DNA of 44,959 nt, from the NCBI GenBank assembly GCA_017461635.1, contig JAFTXK010000078.1, positions 1 through 44,959 on the forward strand. The letters are read 5' to 3'. The DNA comes from Clostridia bacterium. Its GTDB lineage: Bacteria; Bacillota; Clostridia; Oscillospirales; CAG-272. Both the position numbers and the translations under genes were made by a program. This document shows, piece after piece, positions 3,094 through 15,563 of the stretch. The notes beneath the pieces were generated by a model that was given only the letters and a program-made list of their open reading frames with translations, searched no databases and was not told the origin of the DNA. Each line of letters opens with the position of its first letter. Position 1 is the first letter of the stretch.

Positions 3094-3168
3094 TTTTAAA
3101 CACTCCTTTTTTGTCAATTTTTATGACATTTCATGGGCAGGTACGACCTGCCAAAATCTCTCATCATA

Positions 3169-3197
3169 ATCTTACCATATCTATGTTATACTGTCAA
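3169..3197 (-). promoter_or_regulatory. Putative sigmaA promoter for the isomerase-like gene
   Basis: Minus strand TTGACA-17 nt-TAAGAT, about 75 nt upstream of the ATG. Confidence 0.35.
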
Positions 3198-3251
3198 GAA
3201 TTTTTTGTCATTTGAAGCAAAAAAGCAAGATATATCATGTATATTGAGCCT

Positions 3252-3290
3252 AAAAAAAGATGTCGCCTACCGCGACATCTTTTATTTTTT
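3252..3290. terminator. Bidirectional rho-independent terminator ending the BCAA operon after ridA
   Basis: AAAAAAAGATGTCGC-ctacc-GCGACATCTTTTATTTTTT: a 9-bp stem flanked by an A-run and a T-run. Confidence 0.75.
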
Positions 3291-3663
3291 AAAGCTCTGC
3301 GATAACCTCGACCTCAACAAGTGCTCCCTTGGGGAGAGCCTTTGCCGCAACGCAGCTGCGGGCGGGCTTTGAGGTGAAATATTTGCCGTAGATCTCATTG
3401 AAAGCGGCAAAATCAGCGATATCAGCGAGGAAGCATGTGGTCTTGACAGCCTTATCCATGCTTGTTCCTGCCGCCGCGAGAACTGCTGTGAGATTCTTCA
3501 TGACCTGCTCGGTCTGTCCTGCTATGTCCTTTGCCACGATGTCGCCTACTGCGGGATCTATTGCGATCTGTCCGGATGTGAACACCATATTTCCTACGAC
3601 CATTGCCTGGGAATAGGGTCCGATGGCACTCGGTGCTTTATCTGTTGCTATAATTTTTGCCAT
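3289..3663 (-). CDS. ridA: RidA family reactive enamine/imine deaminase (YjgF/TdcF)
   Basis: MAKIIATDKAPSAIGPYSQAMVVGNMVFTSGQIAIDP... is a canonical RidA N-terminus. ATG 3663 is preceded by TTAGGAGAAAAATC. The track ORF has a spurious 7-aa extension. Confidence 0.92.
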   Translation of the reverse strand: MAKIIATDKAPSAIGPYSQAMVVGNMVFTSGQIAIDPAVGDIVAKDIAGQTEQVMKNLTAVLAAAGTSMDKAVKTTCFLADIADFAAFNEIYGKYFTSKPARSCVAAKALPKGALVEVEVIAEL

Positions 3664-4973: not shown

Positions 4974-6143
4974 TCAAATCAAACTTTCGATAAACTGCTC
5001 TGCGCATCTTGCGCTTCTGTAGCCACGGCTGAGGGCAAAAGCCTCTGCCTTCTGCTCGATCTCGGGAGTTACCTCAATTCCGTTGCGCTCCGCCAGCTCA
5101 TGGATGATCTCCAGATAGAGCTTCTTTTCGGGCTTTGCAAAAAGAATAGAAAGACCGAAGCGAGCGGAAAGAGAAAGATTTTCCTGCATAGTGTCATTTC
5201 TGTGAACATCATCACCGGTTCTGTCGGAAAAAGTCTCCTTTATGATATGCCTACGATTGCTTGTGGCATAAATGACCGCATTCTTAGCCTTTGCGCTTGC
5301 CGAGCCTTCAAGGGTCGCCTTCAGCATACTGAAATCATCATCTCCATTAAACGAAAGATCATCTATGAAAATGATAAATTTAAGAGGATTTCCGCTTATC
5401 TCACCCATCACTTTGGGGAGAAGGAGAAGCTGATTTTTTCTGATCTCAATAAGGCGAAGTCCCTCTTCAAAGAAGTTATTAGCAACGGCCTTGACTGTTG
5501 AGGATTTACCCGTTCCGGCGTCGCCGTAAAGCAGGATATTTGCCGCAGGCTTGCCCGCAAGGAACGCCTGAGTATTATTCATGACCTTCTGTCTTTCGTC
5601 CTTATAGCCGACGAACTTATCAAGAGTTATGCGGTCTGCGCTGGCGATGGGAACTATAGTTCCGTCATCTTCCACGTAGAACATTCCGTTTGAAGCAAAA
5701 ATGCCGTAGCCGTATTTGCCGATGCTGCCGAGCCTGCTTTCGTATTCGGCTTTTATATCTGCCTTGCCGTTTTCATATGAAGGGATAAACTCATCTGTTC
5801 CCATATCCTCGGCAAAATCTATGGCTGTAAGAGCGGCAAAATCAGTAAGCACATCAAGCTCATGCTCCACCGCCGCCCACATACACGGGCTGATCTTTTC
5901 CATATTTCCCACGGCTCTGACGTAAACATTCTCGTCCTCAAAAACCAGGCTTCTCACGCAATCTGTTAGAGACGCGCCCCCTTTATAGATCTCGGAAACG
6001 AAAGAGGCATATTTGCGAAGCTTTTCGTCGGTCTCCGCCGCCTTTGCGTATTCAAAAAATCTCTTATAGAGGGGCTTTTCAAGCATTCCGCCGAAAACGG
6101 AAAAGGAGCAAAGTCCCAAATAAATCTTATTTATCTTTGTCAT
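4974..6143 (-). CDS. DUF815-type AAA/P-loop ATPase of unknown function
   Basis: Intact Walker A LLYGDAGTGKSS and Walker B-like FIIFIDDLSF. The track start is TTG 6164, which overlaps the leuB stop. ATG 6143 (MTKINKIY...) is the first ATG. The RBS is weak for both. Confidence 0.7.
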   Translation of the reverse strand: MTKINKIYLGLCSFSVFGGMLEKPLYKRFFEYAKAAETDEKLRKYASFVSEIYKGGASLTDCVRSLVFEDENVYVRAVGNMEKISPCMWAAVEHELDVLTDFAALTAIDFAEDMGTDEFIPSYENGKADIKAEYESRLGSIGKYGYGIFASNGMFYVEDDGTIVPIASADRITLDKFVGYKDERQKVMNNTQAFLAGKPAANILLYGDAGTGKSSTVKAVANNFFEEGLRLIEIRKNQLLLLPKVMGEISGNPLKFIIFIDDLSFNGDDDFSMLKATLEGSASAKAKNAVIYATSNRRHIIKETFSDRTGDDVHRNDTMQENLSLSARFGLSILFAKPEKKLYLEIIHELAERNGIEVTPEIEQKAEAFALSRGYRSARCAEQFIESLI

Positions 6144-6150
6144 AATATAC

Positions 6151-7218
<1,068 letters not shown>

Positions 7219-9023: not shown

Positions 9024-9701
9024 TTAAAAATTGCCTTTATATATATAAGATGCTGCTTTTTTCAGCTCGATCATATCACTATCGGAGACATTTTCGATCG
9101 AAACATCAATATTTGCGGGATCAATGCCAAATATTTTGGAAAAGATCGTCAGTGCCGCTATCGTACTGCCGCAAAGGTCGGGATGCAATTTGTCATCCTT
9201 ATATAATCTCACATCCGAATTTTCGGAAGCATACGAAATTGCCGCTCCCGCATAGCAAACGGGAATATCAAGCTCTTTGCCCATATCGGCATAAGCGGCA
9301 CGAAGCTTCATTTCCATTTCGGGCATATCTTTTCCGAACTTTATAAGCTCCGGATGACCGTCAGAGAGGGCACAGGGCTCATAGAGATATGTCTGTGCGC
9401 CGTTTGCCGTTATCATTTTATAAAGCTTTCGCACAGCATCTTGAAAAAGCCGGGGCTCGGTTATAGGATAGCGTCCATATTCCTGAATAATAACGATATC
9501 ATATTTGTTGTTCTCAAAAGCAGACTTTACCTTTGCACCGTATTCGTTATTTTCATCGGCAAACTGATAAAGATGATATCCGCCTTTTGTTATCGATGTA
9601 ACTTCCGCCTCTTTTCCGCAAGCCTTTGCAATGGCGGAAAAGATCACCTCGGGCATATCGTTATAATATGTTAAGCTGTTTCCGATAAATAAGATTTTCA
9701 T
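9024..9701 (-). CDS. SGNH/GDSL-like hydrolase family protein (DUF4886-like), function unknown
   Basis: N-terminal MKILFIGNSLTYY (block I Ser) and C-terminal DDKLHPD (DxxH block V). The start ATG is 2 nt after the ilvD stop and the stop is 24 nt before leuC, so it is embedded in the operon. Confidence 0.6.
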   Translation of the reverse strand: MKILFIGNSLTYYNDMPEVIFSAIAKACGKEAEVTSITKGGYHLYQFADENNEYGAKVKSAFENNKYDIVIIQEYGRYPITEPRLFQDAVRKLYKMITANGAQTYLYEPCALSDGHPELIKFGKDMPEMEMKLRAAYADMGKELDIPVCYAGAAISYASENSDVRLYKDDKLHPDLCGSTIAALTIFSKIFGIDPANIDVSIENVSDSDMIELKKAASYIYKGNF

Positions 9702-9703
9702 GA

Positions 9704-11365
9704 TTACTTATTTATGATAGCACCCTTGTCGGCTGAGCTTACCATTGCCGCATAGCGCTTCAGATAACCATTCAGGTTTTCCTTCTTCTTTATGGGCATT
9801 TCAGCCTTTCTCTTTGCTATTTCTTCGTCCGAAACCTTAAGAGAAATGCGGTATTCGGGGATATTGATGGAGATAATATCGCCGTCCTTTACATAAGCGA
9901 TAGTGCCGCCCGAGACAGCCTCAGGAGAAACATGACCGATAGAAGCACCGCGTGTTGCGCCGGAGAAACGACCGTCTGTAATAAGAGCCACATCCTTATC
10001 AAGACCCATACCTGCAATTGCCGAGGTGGGAGAGAGCATCTCTCTCATGCCGGGACCGCCCGAAGGACCTTCATAGCGGATAACAACAACGTCACCCTTT
10101 ACGATTTTTCCTGCGTAAATTGCCGAAATAGCCTCTTCCTCGCTCTCATAGACCTTTGCAGGACCTTCGTGAACGAGCATTTCGGGAGCAACTGCGCTTC
10201 TCTTAACAACACATCCGTCGGGAGCAAGATTACCCTTCAAAACCGCAATACCGCCTGTTTTTGTAAAGGCTGTTTCGGGTGTTCTGATGGTCTCGGGATC
10301 GCGGTTATAAGCATCAGCAATATTTTCAGCCATCGTCTTGCCTGTTACGGTCATAACAGAGGTATCAAGCAGACCGAGCTTGTCAATTTCACGGAGCACT
10401 GCGTAAACGCCGCCTGCTTCGTTAAGGTCTTCCATATATGTAGGACCTGCGGGCGCAAGATGGCAGAGGTTGGGAGTAACCTCGCTTATTCTGTTTACTT
10501 CTTCAAGATCAAATTCAACGCCGCATTCGTTTGCGATTGCGGGCAGATGAAGCATACTGTTTGTTGAGCATCCCAGAGCCATGTCCGCTGTGATTGCATT
10601 CTTTATTGCCGCCGCTGTCATGATGTCACGGGGACGGATATTCTTCTTTATCAGCTCCATAACCTGCATGCCTGCGTGCTTTGCCAGCTCTATTCTTGCG
10701 GAATAAACTGCAGGAATAGTGCCGTTTCCGCGCAGACCCATGCCGAGAACCTCAGTGAGACAGTTCATGGAGTTTGCTGTATACATACCCGAGCAAGATC
10801 CGCAGGTGGGGCAAGCCTTATTTTCAAATTCACAGAGCTTATCCTCGCCGATATTTCCTGCCTTATATGCGCCGACAGCCTCAAACATTGCCGAAAGACT
10901 TCTCTTCTTGCCGTCAACTCTGCCTGCCAGCATAGGACCGCCGCTGACGAAAACGGTTGGGATATTAAGTCTCGCCGCCGCCATAAGCAGACCCGGTACA
11001 TTCTTATCGCAGTTGGGGATCATAACAAGTCCGTCAAAGCCATGCGCCATGACCATTGCCTCTGTTGAATCGGCAATGAGGTCTCTTGTTACAAGTGAGT
11101 ACTTCATGCCGACATGACCCATTGCAATACCGTCGCAGACAGCGATCGCAGGGAACATGATAGGCGTTCCGCCTGCCATTGCAACACCCAGCTTAACGGC
11201 CTCGGTGATCTTATCCAGATTCATGTGTCCGGGTACTATTTCATTATACGAGCTGACAATACCGATGAGAGGTCTGTCCATTTCTTCCTTTGTAAGTCCG
11301 AGCGCCTTGTAGAGCGAGCGGTGAGGCGCATTGTGCGCGCCGTTTACTATCGTATCTTTGATCAT
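9704..11365 (-). CDS. ilvD: Dihydroxy-acid dehydratase
   Basis: [24 protein letters not shown]..., CDKNVPG and [15 protein letters not shown] motifs. The true start is ATG 11365, preceded by AAGGAAGGAA. The track ORF carries a 22-aa spurious N-extension. Confidence 0.95.
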
Positions 11366-11450
11366 AATTCTATTCCTTCCTTTGAAAAGTGCGTTATTGT
11401 TCACGGAAACGGGCGAGATAGCTCTCGTCAATTTCCACGGACAATAATTA

Positions 11451-11479
11451 TTGACATTTTTCGCCCCTTATGATATAAT
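11451..11479 (+). promoter_or_regulatory. SigmaA promoter of peptide (toxin-like) mRNA A
   Basis: TTGACA-17 nt-TATAAT with an extended -10 (TGaTATAAT). It points away from ilvD. Confidence 0.7.
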
Positions 11480-11587
11480 CTTACCCGGAAACCTCGGTTT
11501 CCCGGAGAGTACCATAAAACGGTGGCGGTTGCTTCCTTATTTTTGAGGAAGTGTAAATCTTTTTGCCTTCCTCACACGAGGGAGGTG

Positions 11588-11680
11588 ATGAAAGTGGATA
11601 ATGTTACGTGGAACGATCTTATTCAGATCGCATTTCTTGTCTTTGCCATTTTATCTTGTTTTTATAACAAAAAAAGATAA
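11588..11680 (+). CDS. Small hydrophobic peptide A, putative type I toxin (30 aa from the ATG; 28 aa if GTG 11594 is used)
   Basis: MKVDNVTWNDLIQIAFLVFAILSCFYNKKR: one predicted TM helix plus a basic C-terminal tail. GGAGG (11581-11585) lies 8 nt before GTG 11594. It is a paralog of peptide B and too short for the ORF track. Confidence 0.6.
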   Translation: MKVDNVTWNDLIQIAFLVFAILSCFYNKKR

Positions 11681-11752
11681 CCGCCCAGCTTCCAAAATGT
11701 GCGGTTATCTTTAATCGTAAACTTGGGAAGCAACCGTCACACGGTGCTCTCC
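11668..11752 (-). ncRNA. Putative antisense sRNA A (antitoxin-like), ~85 nt
   Basis: It starts ~7 nt after the consensus -10 (GGAGAGCACCGUGUGACGGUUGCUUCC...) and ends at hairpin AGATAACCGC/GCGGTTATCT (11675-11710) followed by UUUUUUU on the minus strand. It overlaps the last codons and 3' UTR of peptide A. Confidence 0.6.
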
Positions 11753-11758
11753 GTTACT

Positions 11759-11787
11759 ATTATAACCGACTTATCGTTTTTTGTCAA
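11759..11787 (-). promoter_or_regulatory. Consensus sigmaA promoter of antisense sRNA A
   Basis: Minus strand reads TTGACA-17 nt-TATAAT exactly, with an AT-rich upstream tract. Confidence 0.7.
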
Positions 11788-11863
11788 TAGTTTAATTATA
11801 AAAAACAGTACTTTTGCTAAGTTTTCATATTGTCTCACATATATGGCACTATTGACGACTGTA

Positions 11864-11892
11864 TTGACAAAAATCGTCAAATATGATATACT
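11864..11892 (+). promoter_or_regulatory. SigmaA promoter of peptide (toxin-like) mRNA B
   Basis: TTGACA-17 nt-TATACT with TGn extended -10. A 7-bp inverted repeat TTGACGA/TCGTCAA (11852-11858 / 11874-11880) brackets the -35. Confidence 0.65.
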
Positions 11893-12008
11893 TACCTTGG
11901 AGACCCGAAAGGCTCTCCCGGAGAGTGCCATATAACGGTGGCGGTTGCTTCCCTTAACGGGAACGCAGATTTTTTTTTGTTTGCCTTCCCGAGAGGGGAG
12001 GTGATGCT

Positions 12009-12098
12009 GTGTATTTAACACTTGAGCAGTTATTCCTGATTTCAGGTTTTATACTTGCCCTTCTTACTTACATTGACAATCATAACAAAAAGAAATAA
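12009..12098 (+). CDS. Small hydrophobic peptide B, putative type I toxin (29 aa, GTG start)
   Basis: (M)YLTLEQLFLISGFILALLTYIDNHNKKK. GGAGG (11997-12001) lies 7 nt before GTG 12009. It has the same architecture as peptide A (xTxxxL-hydrophobic helix-NKK[RK]). Confidence 0.6.
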   Translation: MYLTLEQLFLISGFILALLTYIDNHNKKK

Positions 12099-12172
12099 CC
12101 GCCTCTGCTTCGAAACGTAGGCGGTTAAATCTTTTAACTTAAGCGTGGAAGCAACCGTCATCGGTGCTCTCC
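12086..12172 (-). ncRNA. Putative antisense sRNA B (antitoxin-like), ~87 nt
   Basis: It starts after the consensus promoter (GGAGAGCACCGAUGACGGUUGCUUCC...) and ends at hairpin TAACCGCCT/AGGCGGTTA (12096-12127) followed by UUUCUUUUUGUU on the minus strand. It overlaps the peptide B stop codon and 3' UTR. Confidence 0.6.
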
Positions 12173-12178
12173 GTTACT

Positions 12179-12207
12179 ATTATAACCGACTTATCAATTC
12201 TTGTCAA
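12179..12207 (-). promoter_or_regulatory. Consensus sigmaA promoter of antisense sRNA B
   Basis: Minus strand TTGACA-17 nt-TATAAT. The block 12162-12222 is nearly identical to 11742-11802. Confidence 0.7.
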
Positions 12208-12243
12208 TAGTTTAATTATAAATTTTTTAACAATTCCGGCACA

Positions 12244-12272
12244 GGGGGCTTTTCTTTTATGAAAAAGCCCCC
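12244..12272. other. Strong stem-loop just downstream of the ilvC stop
   Basis: GGGGGCTTTT-cttttatga-AAAAGCCCCC (10-bp stem). No clean U-tract follows on either strand. It could be a partial terminator or stabiliser for ilvC (minus) and/or the end of mRNA B (plus). Confidence 0.4.
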
Positions 12273-12294
12273 GATGCGTTTGGTGTCAAATATA

Positions 12295-13344
<1,050 letters not shown>

Positions 13345-13357
13345 TTATTGTTTCTTT

Positions 13358-13384
13358 GCCTTCCCTGCAAGGGAAGGCTTTTTA
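13358..13384 (+). terminator. Stem-loop with a T-tract only on the + (non-coding) strand, between ilvN and ilvC
   Basis: GCCTTCCCT-gca-AGGGAAGGC followed by TTTTTA on the + strand. On the operon (minus) strand it is followed by AAAGAAAC, so it is not a terminator in the sense direction. Confidence 0.4.
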
Positions 13385-13876
13385 TTTGTTGAGAAGCGTA
13401 CCTGCGCCTCTTTCAAGGGCTACGATACCCGTGCGGCACATTTCAAGGATGCCGTAGGGCTCCATGAGCTTAACAAAAGCATCTATCTTTGTGGGGTCGC
13501 CCGTGATCTCGATGCAAAGTTCGGTTGCGGTATAGTCGATCACCTTTGCTCTATACACATTTGTCGCATCCAGCACATCCGAGCGTGTTTCACGGTTATT
13601 TTTAACCTTAATGAGCATCAGCTCGCGGGTAATCGGCGCATCGTCCAGAACCTCCACCTTTTTGACGTTATAGAGCTTCTTCATCTGATTTATCATCATC
13701 TGTCTCATATAATCGTCGCCGTCAAGTGTGATGGTGATACGGGAATAATCGGGGTTTTCCGTTTCGCCAACGGTCAAAGCGTCGATGTTGAAGCCGCGGC
13801 GGGTGAACATGCTGGTAACTCTTGTCAGAACGCCGGCTTTGTTATCAACATAGACCGCAATTACAAACTTACTCAT
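13382..13876 (-). CDS. ilvN: Acetolactate synthase small (regulatory) subunit
   Basis: MSKFVIAVYVDNKAGVLTRVTSMFTRRGFNIDALTVG... (ACT domain). ATG 13876 overlaps the ilvB stop (ATGAGTAA), with GGAGGGTG upstream. Confidence 0.9.
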   Translation of the reverse strand: MSKFVIAVYVDNKAGVLTRVTSMFTRRGFNIDALTVGETENPDYSRITITLDGDDYMRQMMINQMKKLYNVKKVEVLDDAPITRELMLIKVKNNRETRSDVLDATNVYRAKVIDYTATELCIEITGDPTKIDAFVKLMEPYGILEMCRTGIVALERGAGTLLNK

Positions 13877-15563
13877 TGCCTTCACCCTCCTTATTTACAA
13901 TAATATCATCAATAGAGCCGCCGGGAGGAAGCATGGGAAGAACAAATTCGTCCTTATCGATAAGAGTATCGATGATAACAGGTCTGCCTGCCGCTAGAGC
14001 ATCCTCAAATGCCTTTGCAAACTCGTCCGGAGTAGCCGCTCTTACGCCGATAGCGCCAAAAGCCTCTGCCAGCTTAACGAAATCGGTCTGTCTGCCGAGC
14101 ACGGTGTTTGAATATCTCTTTCCGAAGAAGAGTGTCTGCCACTGGCGAACCATTCCGAGAACGCCATTGTTCATAAGAACGATAACAACAGGGATATTAT
14201 AAGAAACCGCCGTTGCAACCTCATTGAGATTCATGCCGAAGCTTCCGTCGCCCGTGATAAGGACTGTAGGATCGCCGCTTCCGACCATTGCGCCGAGAGC
14301 CGCACCGAGACCGAAGCCCATTGTTCCAAGTCCGCCCGAGGAAACAAAGCGTCTTGGACCGTCAAAATCCGCATACTGCGCCGCCCACATCTGATGTTGT
14401 CCAACATCGGTTGCGATAACGGTATGCGCAGGCTTCTTTTCGTTGATAATATCAAGAACCTTTTTGGGCGTAAGCGCGCCCTTGGCTCTTTCCTCTGCCT
14501 TCTTTTCAAGGTCTGCCTCGCGAGCCTTCAGAGACCCAACAAGCTCGTTCCATTCGGGATGCTTTGCCCGAGGGAGAGCCGCCGCGATTCTCGTAAAGGA
14601 ATCGTAAACATCGGCAACGATACCGAGATCAACATTTATATTCTTATTTATCTCCGCAAAATCGGGATCAAGCTGAATTATCTTACTGTTCTTTGCAAAT
14701 TTTGCCGCATTTCCCGTGGCTCTGTCGCTGAAACGAACTCCAACCGCCAAGATAAGGTCGGAATCCTTTTGCGCCAAGGATGAAGCGAAATGACCGTGCA
14801 TACCCTGCATACCGAGGAAGCGTTCACAGCTATTTGGAATAGCGGAAAGTCCCATAAAGGAGCATCCGATATAAGCATCGATCTTTTCGGCAAGAGCCAT
14901 TATCTCCTTGCCCATTCCCAGACCTGCCGCGCCGCCGCCGATATAGATATAGGGGCGCTTTGCCTCCTTTATCATATCAACCGCCGCATCGATCTCGCTC
15001 TGCTCAGCCTTTGGCAGAGGGATCTTGGGAGCGACCGGCTGAATCTCAAAATCGTATTCCGCGATCTGAACATCCTTCGGAACATCGATAAGAACGGGGC
15101 CCGGTCTGCCGGATTTTGCAATGCTGAATGCCTCGCGGATGGTGTCTGCAAGATCAGCAATATTTTTAACTATGTAGTTATGCTTTGTGATTGGAAGCGT
15201 AACGCCTACGATATCTATCTCCTGGAAGCTGTCACGTCCGAGGAGAGGGCAGGGAACATTTCCCGTGATGGCAACCATCGGAACAGAATCAAGCATTGCT
15301 GTTGCGATACCTGTAACAAGATTTGTCGCACCGGGGCCCGAGGTTGCAATGCAAACGCCGACCTTGCCGGTAGCTCTCGAATAGCCGTCGGCGGCGTGTG
15401 CCGCACCCTGCTCGTGAGCTGTTAAAATGTGATTTATTCTGTCGCTGTTTTTATAGAGGGCGTCATAGATATTTAGTACCTGACCGCCCGGATAACCGAA
15501 AACATCGGTAACGCCCTGCTCAATGAGGGTGTTTACGATGATCTCCGCACCTGTCATTTTCAT
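13869..15563 (-). CDS. ilvB: Acetolactate synthase large (catalytic) subunit
   Basis: 564 aa ThDP enzyme: MTGAEIIVNTLIEQGVTDVFGYPGGQVLNIYDAL..., ...GDGSFGMNLNE... Confidence 0.93.
   Translation of the reverse strand: MKMTGAEIIVNTLIEQGVTDVFGYPGGQVLNIYDALYKNSDRINHILTAHEQGAAHAADGYSRATGKVGVCIATSGPGATNLVTGIATAMLDSVPMVAITGNVPCPLLGRDSFQEIDIVGVTLPITKHNYIVKNIADLADTIREAFSIAKSGRPGPVLIDVPKDVQIAEYDFEIQPVAPKIPLPKAEQSEIDAAVDMIKEAKRPYIYIGGGAAGLGMGKEIMALAEKIDAYIGCSFMGLSAIPNSCERFLGMQGMHGHFASSLAQKDSDLILAVGVRFSDRATGNAAKFAKNSKIIQLDPDFAEINKNINVDLGIVADVYDSFTRIAAALPRAKHPEWNELVGSLKAREADLEKKAEERAKGALTPKKVLDIINEKKPAHTVIATDVGQHQMWAAQYADFDGPRRFVSSGGLGTMGFGLGAALGAMVGSGDPTVLITGDGSFGMNLNEVATAVSYNIPVVIVLMNNGVLGMVRQWQTLFFGKRYSNTVLGRQTDFVKLAEAFGAIGVRAATPDEFAKAFEDALAAGRPVIIDTLIDKDEFVLPMLPPGGSIDDIIVNKEGEGNE

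Follow-up and report, generated by a model that had tools for sequence, protein, structure and literature searches.

Why would an operon for the synthesis of branched-chain amino acids (BCAA) carry two copies of a small cassette, each with its own promoters and terminator, between two of its genes? The window analysed here is a stretch of 44,959 nt, contig JAFTXK010000078.1 of a Clostridia bacterium (assembly GCA_017461635.1). Its - strand holds ilvB (13869-15563), ilvN (13382-13885), ilvC (12295-13311) and ilvD (9704-11365) in one BCAA operon, with leuA upstream and leuC downstream, and in the gap between ilvC and ilvD lie cassette A (11451-11802) and cassette B (11864-12222). We believe these are quite probably antisense-controlled small-peptide modules that resemble toxin-antitoxin (TA) systems of type I, of the Gram-positive kind in which the two genes converge at their 3' ends. 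What marks such a system can be recognised here at the level of sequence: a small peptide that appears to be coding, a cis-antisense small RNA (sRNA) with its own predicted promoter and terminator, and a predicted sequestration of the Shine-Dalgarno (SD) sequence. Family resemblance and architecture suggest that the peptide is toxic, and we infer that both RNAs are produced and that RNase III has a role.

The two cassettes

A first-pass annotation of this DNA had described two paralogous cassettes of about 350 nt in a 930-bp gap. Their features are found at or within a few nucleotides of where it placed them, and the size of the gap needs adjusting, to 929 bp (11366-12294). The true ilvD ATG is at 11365, taken from a gene call on an identical contig in a metagenome assembly; that contig (L001; L-numbers are labels of the collected loci) is itself comparatively uninformative. 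Cassettes A and B can be aligned from end to end. Their non-coding blocks, 37 nt of the 5' untranslated region (5'UTR) and 61 nt of the sRNA 5' part and promoter, are 95-100% identical, while the coding part has diverged, and both halves of that pattern had been annotated. The chance expectation for the conserved 18-mer and 26-mer blocks, judged from shuffles, is 0.00. A consensus scan finds four promoter-like sites at 11-12/12 that form two convergent pairs, and promoter-like sites number 6 versus 2.2 +/- 1.6 in shuffled sequence. The near-consensus + strand promoters with TG and the perfect - strand promoters of the annotation are both there, as are its open reading frames (ORFs) of 28-30 codons. 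The predicted features are these, with the kind of evidence in brackets.

Cassette A
11451..11479, + strand: toxin-A promoter, TTGACA-17-TATAAT with TG extension (12/12)
11484..11505, + strand: P1, 5'-terminal hairpin of the toxin-A mRNA (fold; covariation)
11503..11536, + strand: M block of the toxin-A 5'UTR (CGGAGAGTACC..ACGGTGGCGGTTGCTTCC), an inverted repeat of the sRNA 5' module (repeat analysis, alignment)
11530..11553, + strand: HP2 hairpin A (CUUCCU/AGGAAG) then a U-run, terminator-like (fold; family pairing)
11565..11586, + strand: SD-sequestering hairpin A, anti-SD CCTTCCTC at 11566-11573 and SD GAGGGAGG at 11578-11585 (fold; alignment)
11594..11680, + strand: peptide A ORF, toxin-like, GTG start, 28 aa (MDNVTWNDLIQIAFLVFAILSCFYNKKR), alternative ATG at 11588 (ORF, family conservation)
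11667..11718, both strands: bidirectional terminator A, whose stem 11673-11712 includes the TAA stop and whose A-tract is made of Lys codons (fold; alignment)
11664..11754, - strand: predicted antisense sRNA A, about 90 nt, with M' hairpin 11726-11753, linker and terminator (covariance model R1, 71.8 bits)
11759..11787, - strand: sRNA-A promoter, perfect TTGACA-17-TATAAT (12/12)

Cassette B
11864..11892, + strand: toxin-B promoter, TTGACA-17-TATACT with TG extension (11/12)
11899..11918, + strand: P1 hairpin of the toxin-B mRNA (fold; covariation)
11919..11952, + strand: M block of the toxin-B 5'UTR (repeat analysis)
11945..11978, + strand: HP2 hairpin B (UUGCUUCCC/GGGAACGCA) and a run of nine U (fold; alignment)
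11983..12002, + strand: SD-sequestering hairpin B (CCTTCCC / GGGGAGG) (fold; alignment)
12009..12098, + strand: peptide B ORF, toxin-like, GTG start, 29 aa (MYLTLEQLFLISGFILALLTYIDNHNKKK) (ORF, Hol_Tox 24.0 bits, family conservation)
12088..12135, both strands: bidirectional terminator B across the stop codon (fold; alignment)
12083..12174, - strand: predicted antisense sRNA B, about 92 nt, with M' hairpin 12147-12173, linker and terminator (R1, 92 bits)
12179..12207, - strand: sRNA-B promoter, perfect TTGACA-17-TATAAT (12/12)

The strength of the promoters is not the same on the two strands. Across the family of cassettes described below the sRNA promoters are perfect (12/12) in 66 of 70 copies despite variable spacer sequences, and the toxin promoters are mostly 11/12. 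This asymmetry in favor of the sRNA fits the logic of a TA system.

The small ORF is a gene

The annotation had proposed that frame-breaking indels in homologous loci would point to a non-coding element. The family shows the opposite. Nearly all of the first 55 distinct cassette sequences extracted have an ORF of 27-31 codons at the equivalent position, its start 4-8 nt downstream of GGAGGTGATG. That length is retained in about 55 of 63 complete loci, with peptide identity to peptide B of only 22-79%, and a single frameshift was met (in L065). The family pattern is M-x-x-T-[LW]-E-x-L, a hydrophobic helix, then Y-I-x-N-x-x-K-K-K, to which peptide A can be aligned; both peptides of the window are hydrophobic and single-helix, with KKK or KKR at the C-terminus. 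The ratio of nonsynonymous to synonymous differences (pN/pS) is 0.24 over 181 pairs of coding sequences of the same length. Entropy at codon positions 1, 2 and 3 is 24.3, 9.0 and 30.8, so position 2 is the most constrained. The orthologous cassette A of L008 and L070 shows two synonymous differences and a single Asp-to-Glu change. Because length and frame are kept, pN/pS is low and changes are synonymous, unlike the behaviour of a non-coding element, we read the small ORF as a genuine coding gene under purifying selection.

Peptide A has two possible starts, ATG 11588, which is 2 nt after GGAGG, and GTG 11594, which is 8 nt after it. The GTG is the likely one, giving a predicted product of 28 aa, because the ATG is too near GGAGG and the GTG is aligned with the start codons of the family. 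The public gene call for the identical contig misses both real peptides and instead places a 39-aa ORF antisense to toxin B (12042-12161 on the - strand, equal to L001 4664-4783). An exact look-up in a collection of 15 billion proteins finds family peptides mostly absent or unnamed, with a few nameless entries.

Two predicted RNAs that end at one terminator

The structures were judged on two alignments, one of the toxin mRNA from 32 cassettes (A3) and one of 63 distinct sRNA sequences (A4), the latter being the source of R1. In the toxin mRNA the sequence of P1 is variable and its pairing is kept, with 4-11 double compensatory changes per pair. The M block that follows is conserved, with the consensus CGGAGAG-YR-CC...ACGGUGGCGGUUGCUUCC. 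HP2 has the family form CUUCCC/GGGAAG before its U-run, and 92% of its cells are paired. The SD hairpin (GCCUUCCC / GGGGAGGU) is 98.4% paired with 3 compensated pairs, and because of three G.U pairs it belongs to the + strand RNA. Taken together, 96.5% of cells in the local structure are paired and double changes occur at 11 pairs. None of 500 shuffles equals this, and slid controls are only 44-54% paired.

The annotation's sRNA of about 85 nt, ending at a hairpin and U-tract over the stop codon, holds up in its architecture, but its predicted length is nearer 88-92 nt. It folds as a 5' hairpin and a terminator at -33.3 kcal/mol (z -4.4 and -4.0). Against shuffles the sRNAs and terminated mRNAs have z of -4.0 to -5.7, and the read-through mRNAs -7.5 and -10.0. 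In A4, 93.6% of cells are paired, and the order is M', a variable linker of 10-18 nt and the terminator. The terminator covaries: at one of its pairs 32 sequences have AU and 24 have UA, and at another 46 have GC and 7 have AU. A U.G pair in the terminator occurs in 25 of 63 sequences and a G.U pair in M' in 60 of 63. These would be A.C mismatches on the other strand, so we believe the terminator and M' are shaped for the sRNA strand.

The terminator is bidirectional, since in the consensus GGCGGUUAUUUCUUU follows the stem on both strands. The toxin's Lys codons (AAAAAGAAA) and its stop codon, as the A-tract and stem of the terminator, supply the sRNA U-tract. This dual coding is seen at 11664-11690 and 12082-12108, where Lys-Lys-Lys/Arg codons and TAA are A-tract and stem on one strand and the sRNA U-tract on the other, and it may be the reason the basic tail of the peptide is so strongly conserved. 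The sRNA 3' end spans the last four to five toxin codons and the stop, and sRNA and mRNA overlap by 55 nt of perfect complementarity. The 55-bp cognate duplexes have a ddG (difference in free energy) of -50.5 (A) and -55.1 (B) kcal/mol versus -3.4 and -10.6 for the non-cognate combinations, and the specificity is located in the terminator loops and flanks. Antisense recognition loops use motifs of the YUNR type; many sRNA loops have UUGG, and this likeness is only suggestive.

The loop of the SD hairpin can also be enlarged. Three independent cassettes (L007 at about 890-975, L043 at about 230-310, and L050, whose sRNA is at 1198-1287) carry a conserved, structured insert of about 75-80 nt within it. 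The insert folds into a long hairpin (z -3.4 and -4.0) in which the differences from copy to copy are compensatory. The insert has no match in Rfam, and the toxin ORF of these cassettes is still intact.

A family spread over the gut Clostridia

The search of related genomes and the covariance model that the annotation had suggested were both carried out. We scanned one genome per species, 185,579 in all, with the 20-base pattern CGGAGAGNNCCN{4,14}CGGTTGCTTCC, which fits the 5'UTR block as well as the 5' block of the sRNA. It finds 86 loci, of which chance should account for about 11, as roughly reckoned from the length of the pattern and the size of the database. Some 15 of the loci belong to unrelated phyla and resemble that chance background. 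The other 70 or so fall in metagenome-assembled genomes (MAGs) from the guts of ruminants and other hosts, which represent uncultured Clostridia, Eubacteriales, Oscillospiraceae, Ruminococcus and Acutalibacteraceae. There are often several loci per genome, and many have the two motif types on opposite strands about 200 nt apart. With a threshold of 58 bits R1 detects 72 sRNA genes among these loci and a further one truncated by the end of its contig; in the window it detects two and no more, scoring 92 and 72 bits. The family counts at least 70 copies, spread over 40 or more species-level genomes from uncultured Clostridia of the rumen and gut. Its members adjoin unrelated genes, scattered over ordinary intergenic sites. 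Viral contigs (searched with two patterns), a phage collection and a plasmid collection contain no cassette match.

Some copies are incomplete. Six loci (L036, L045, L047, L064, L067 and L081) have an intact sRNA gene and no toxin ORF; the sRNA promoters are perfect in four of five of these, L036 being outside the count, and L045 still has the last 40 nt or so of the toxin coding sequence. L065 is the frameshifted toxin mentioned above and L038 has lost its toxin stop. These look like typical TA decay.

A multicopy element inserted in an operon might also be a selfish or neutral intergenic repeat, similar to a miniature inverted-repeat transposable element, that supplies promoters and terminators and re-wires ilvD and leuCD while its ORF is incidental. 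The inverted-repeat organisation, with promoters and M/M' blocks mirroring each other, is what such an element would have, both sRNA promoters face ilvD, and a consensus scan of the interval between the cassettes and ilvD recognises no separate ilvD promoter. But the ORF is under purifying selection with its length, SD and start kept, and the analysis saw neither a transposase nor a target-site duplication, nor any terminal repeat beyond the promoters. Nor does a comparison of neighbours across the family find any fixed orientation relative to flanking genes. We regard this explanation as very unlikely.

How the cassettes came to be in the operon

In species whose IlvC is 95-96% identical, the order is leuA-ilvB-ilvN-ilvC-ilvD-leuC-leuD and the ilvC-ilvD spacer is merely 28-97 nt (e.g. 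L095-L100, 4518-4614), usually with one small GC hairpin. Because ilvC and ilvD of these relatives are so close together, the cassettes are best read as insertions into the BCAA operon. The closer relatives L008 and L070 (IlvC 98.5-98.8% identical) have one cassette of the A type, and the right end of this single cassette matches the right end of cassette B in the window. The comparison therefore indicates that cassette A arrived first and the body of B later, the latter probably gained by recombination within the conserved sRNA block.

The spacer itself is variable in another way. L101 (4518-4824) has six tandem units of about 46 nt, each with a GC hairpin (GTAGGGGAGGGGTCCGCCCTCCC), where other relatives have a single hairpin copy. 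In the window, a long imperfect hairpin with 25-nt arms lies between cassette A and the ilvD ribosome-binding site (11394-11447). L008 and L070 keep its outer stem, and the inner part is different yet still self-complementary; the hairpin may serve in insulation, termination or processing. Between ilvD and leuC is a 225-aa ORF with no Pfam match (9024-9701 on the - strand). In L095-L101 leuC comes directly after ilvD (spacer 90-255 nt) without this ORF, and the ORF has the appearance of a further insertion in the BCAA operon.

The position directly upstream of ilvD in a BCAA operon, together with the presence, on the strand of ilvD, of a promoter with a terminator after it, invites the idea of a cis-regulatory leader or attenuator (riboswitch, T-box or leader peptide) by which BCAA would control ilvD. 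However, the same cassette is found beside unrelated genes in dozens of genomes, relatives lack it at the ilvC-ilvD site, and the peptide is on the strand opposite ilvD and has no run of Ile, Leu or Val control codons before the terminator. Rfam gives no match at gathering score on either strand across the window, and the matches at E <= 10 over 11300-12400 are only chance-level (SpF36 and a terminator-like rli32). We find this idea scarcely credible and reject it on the empty sites in relatives and the unrelated contexts elsewhere. What the insertion has done is to put two strong terminators and two perfect promoters between ilvC and ilvD, all in the sense direction of the operon, and read-through from the sRNA promoters may now be what transcribes ilvD and leuCD.

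Toxin or regulator

The first-pass annotation had suggested a Hol_Tox-type peptide and supposed that no antitoxin RNA had been described for that class. The supposition was wrong, as RatA, SR4 and SR5 are well-known RNA antitoxins of Hol_Tox toxins. BsrG of B. subtilis scores 34.5 bits on Hol_Tox (its sequence is found verbatim in PMC4342826), and TxpA-family members are annotated as holin-like toxins (Fozo et al. 2010). TxpA and BsrE score 31.3 and 47.9 bits. Hol_Tox and the TxpA/BsrG/BsrE family being one, the annotation had drawn on this very toxin class for its analogy of layout. The assignment itself is borderline and concerns one peptide of the pair: on Pfam Hol_Tox (PF16935, gathering cut-off 23.3 bits) peptide B scores 24.0, marginally above, and peptide A has no match. 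Of 10 sequences scanned, one family peptide reaches 25.8 bits, while the rest score 17.6-20.4 or have no match; at E <= 0.01 there are matches for 13 of the 33 family peptides. Aligned as profiles with hhalign, the family matches TxpA/BsrG/BsrE with E 4e-4 and a probability of 35%. On these scores we place the peptides as a divergent, borderline branch of the TxpA/BsrG/BsrE (Hol_Tox) superfamily. The annotation had also asked whether the cassette might belong to a family already described; no Rfam RNA matches it, and the toxin is distantly Hol_Tox-like.

The same two-RNA module might control something milder, a small membrane peptide that regulates without being toxic, either ComI-like or acting on a membrane protein, with the antisense RNA setting its level. 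Peptide B has a weak match to ComI in NCBIfam, the cassettes sit at chromosomal sites, in core metabolic operons and ordinary intergenic places, with no link to phages or plasmids, and there is a precedent for a non-toxic candidate in YhzE-2 (Fozo 2010). The ComI match is 22.2 bits, however, far under the cut-off of 55 (NF052249), peptide A has none, and we reject membership of that family. In addition, multiple copies, tandem amplification, horizontal scatter, orphan antitoxins and decay of the toxin first are the behaviour of a selfish TA module, and maximal antitoxin promoters with a buried SD are hallmarks of restraining a harmful product. We hold a non-toxic regulator to be rather improbable, though less so than the intergenic repeat.

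A possible mechanism

If the cassettes are type I TA-like modules, the following course of events seems reasonable to us. The σA promoter would give a toxin mRNA of about 230 nt with P1, M, HP2 and its U-run, the SD hairpin and the peptide ORF. A very strong SD (GGAGGUGAU) would be buried against an anti-SD (CCUUCCC) a few nucleotides upstream, and free mRNA would be poorly translated owing to this hairpin. From the opposite strand a perfect σA promoter would give the sRNA of about 90 nt, and both RNAs would end at the common bidirectional terminator. The abundant sRNA would pair with the mRNA 3' end, probably starting at the two complementary terminator loops, and RNase III would cut the duplex so that the mRNA is degraded, by analogy with SR4/bsrG. 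Should the supply of sRNA fail, the peptide would be made and would damage the membrane.

The first-pass annotation had reached the same type I-like interpretation from the layout of TxpA/RatA and BsrG/SR4, and it is now strengthened by selection on the ORF in frame, by compensatory changes in the RNAs and by the perfect sRNA promoters of 66 of 70 copies. Several observations nevertheless weigh against it. Every host of family members is an uncultured MAG, and the cassettes are not on phages or plasmids, unlike the prophage-like setting of the Bacillus systems. Peptide A and most family members fall under the Hol_Tox gathering score, and the profile-profile probability is only 35%. A simple cis-antisense mechanism does not explain the near-invariance of M'. 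Finally, YhzE-2 had been predicted to be a type I toxin, has an antisense RNA, and proved non-toxic (Fozo 2010).

The mirrored modules

M in the toxin 5'UTR and M' in the sRNA 5' hairpin are inverted repeats of each other, a relation that the first-pass annotation had passed over. The M' hairpin (ACGGAGAGCACCGAUGACGGUUGCUUCC, 27 nt) is near-invariant, bulges and loop included, although peptides, linkers, terminator loops and promoter spacers have widely diverged. A mere 5' stabiliser needs only structure, as the variable, covarying P1 shows, and M' should therefore require a sequence-specific partner. We know of no type I TA system in which a sequence-specific module is common to toxin mRNA and antitoxin RNA. 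A metagenome scan anchored on the SD hairpin, a sample meant as unbiased for M and M', gave 6 loci, all with both modules.

One candidate partner is the toxin mRNA itself. In the read-through transcript RNAalifold pairs M with the 3' tail beyond the terminator by 25 pairs (27 with two variable positions left unpaired), a helix that adds about -31 kcal/mol and is chosen as the consensus. The 25 predicted pairs are present in nearly all of the 32 cassettes. One is compensated (CG 22, UG 8, AU 2), but the covariation is uninformative because the 3' block is invariant. If M does pair with this tail, M' would be antisense to a universal tail. Nearly all variants of M and M' are transitions that preserve the sRNA hairpin and the long-range helix alike through G.U pairs; L049 has a coordinated change on both sides, and L060 and L088 have uncompensated ones. 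L049 is also the richest locus in tandem copies, with four cassettes at a spacing of about 385-405 nt and a fifth 2 kb away (3115-3365 and 5272-6728). Their peptides are nearly identical, and changes in M' go with changes in M (GGAGAGAGCC vs GGAGAGAACC).

We tentatively suggest that, over and above ordinary cis-antisense control, M and M' provide a handle common to the whole family, either as a lock between the 5' and 3' ends or for a shared partner, and we hold this to be possible rather than probable. As a lock, the read-through toxin mRNA would be held by M pairing with its own 3' tail, and the tail could be targeted by any family sRNA, orphans included, giving a cross-protecting network among paralogous cassettes. 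As a binding site, one dedicated protein or RNase would recognise both RNAs. An alternative would be a switch resembling an attenuator, in which the CUUCC of M pairs either upstream (with GGAG) or downstream (with the GGGAAG of HP2, before the U-run).

To our knowledge type I TA systems are almost unknown outside the Enterobacteria, the Bacilli, Helicobacter and C. difficile, and they are hard to find. The family described here, from a group that is poorly covered, is large, clean and unannotated, with a peptide that gene callers miss while they call a spurious antisense ORF. Its design is compact, in that the Lys-Lys-Lys-stop end of the toxin doubles as the A-tract and stem of the terminator and so as the U-tract of the antitoxin. 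The invariant module in both RNAs raises the question of a sequence-specific partner, and the BCAA operon, split by two perfect promoters and two strong terminators, may offer a natural example of how a selfish module re-wires transcription. The alignments and the covariance model could seed an Rfam or Pfam entry.

Comparison with known systems

The C. difficile modules, compared here by description only, are also small membrane toxins with antisense RNAs in a member of the Clostridia. Their toxins are about 50 aa long. CD2517.1/RCd8 and its like are reported to lie beside CRISPR arrays or in prophages and to use other toxin families (Maikova 2018, Peltier 2020).

As for control of the primary transcript, hok/sok and aapA1/IsoA1 are reported to lock it by a long-distance interaction of its 5' and 3' ends (Masachis & Darfeuille 2018, as summarised in PMC8594479). 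The read-through cassette mRNA resembles them in having a tail able to pair with M in the 5'UTR. But its helix needs read-through of an apparently good terminator, and the antisense RNA overlaps the 3' part of the mRNA, where theirs overlaps the 5' part.

SprA1AS of Staphylococcus aureus is a cis-encoded antisense RNA that acts via a non-overlapping 5' domain on SprA1, whose toxin is Fst/PepA1-like. The cassettes share its 3'-overlap layout and have a conserved sRNA 5' domain outside the minimal overlap, with a CUUCC segment like an anti-SD that could reach the toxin ribosome-binding site. In contrast to SprA1AS, this CUUCC is buried in the sRNA's own hairpin and the peptide family is different, and no conserved extended complementarity of the sRNA 5' domain to the toxin start region was found.

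The closest systems are bsrE/SR5, bsrG/SR4 and txpA/RatA of Bacillus. Their sRNAs of 160-220 nt are much longer than the cassette sRNA of about 90 nt. As T1TAdb describes the class of TxpA/RatA and BsrE-G-H (PMC8594479), the antisense RNA is located on the 3' side, where it covers the end of the ORF, an arrangement present in both cassettes. The peptides are likewise single helices with a polar N-terminus and a basic C-terminus, and the end of BsrE, ...FIIALLTYIEK, is similar to ...FILALLTYIDN of peptide B. The convergent sRNA has its own σA promoter there, as is predicted here. SR4 works through RNase III on an overlap of about 120 nt (PMC4342826), versus about 55 nt in the cassettes. The RNAs show no homology in either direction: R1 gives 10 bits or less and no match on the SPbeta bsrG/SR4 locus, and Rfam BsrG RF01412, which scores 210 bits on that locus as a positive control, has no match in the window. 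The bsrG locus has a separate 3'UTR and terminator, where the cassettes have one common bidirectional terminator abutting the stop codon, and unlike the Bacillus systems the cassettes are outside prophages and carry the mirrored M and M'. What is already known, then, is the Gram-positive class of 3'-convergent type I TA systems with RNA antitoxins, and this is not a toxin class without an antitoxin. What is new is the RNA scaffold, how large the family is and which hosts it has (uncultured gut Clostridia), the economy by which terminator and Lys codons are one and the same, and the invariant module mirrored in both RNAs.

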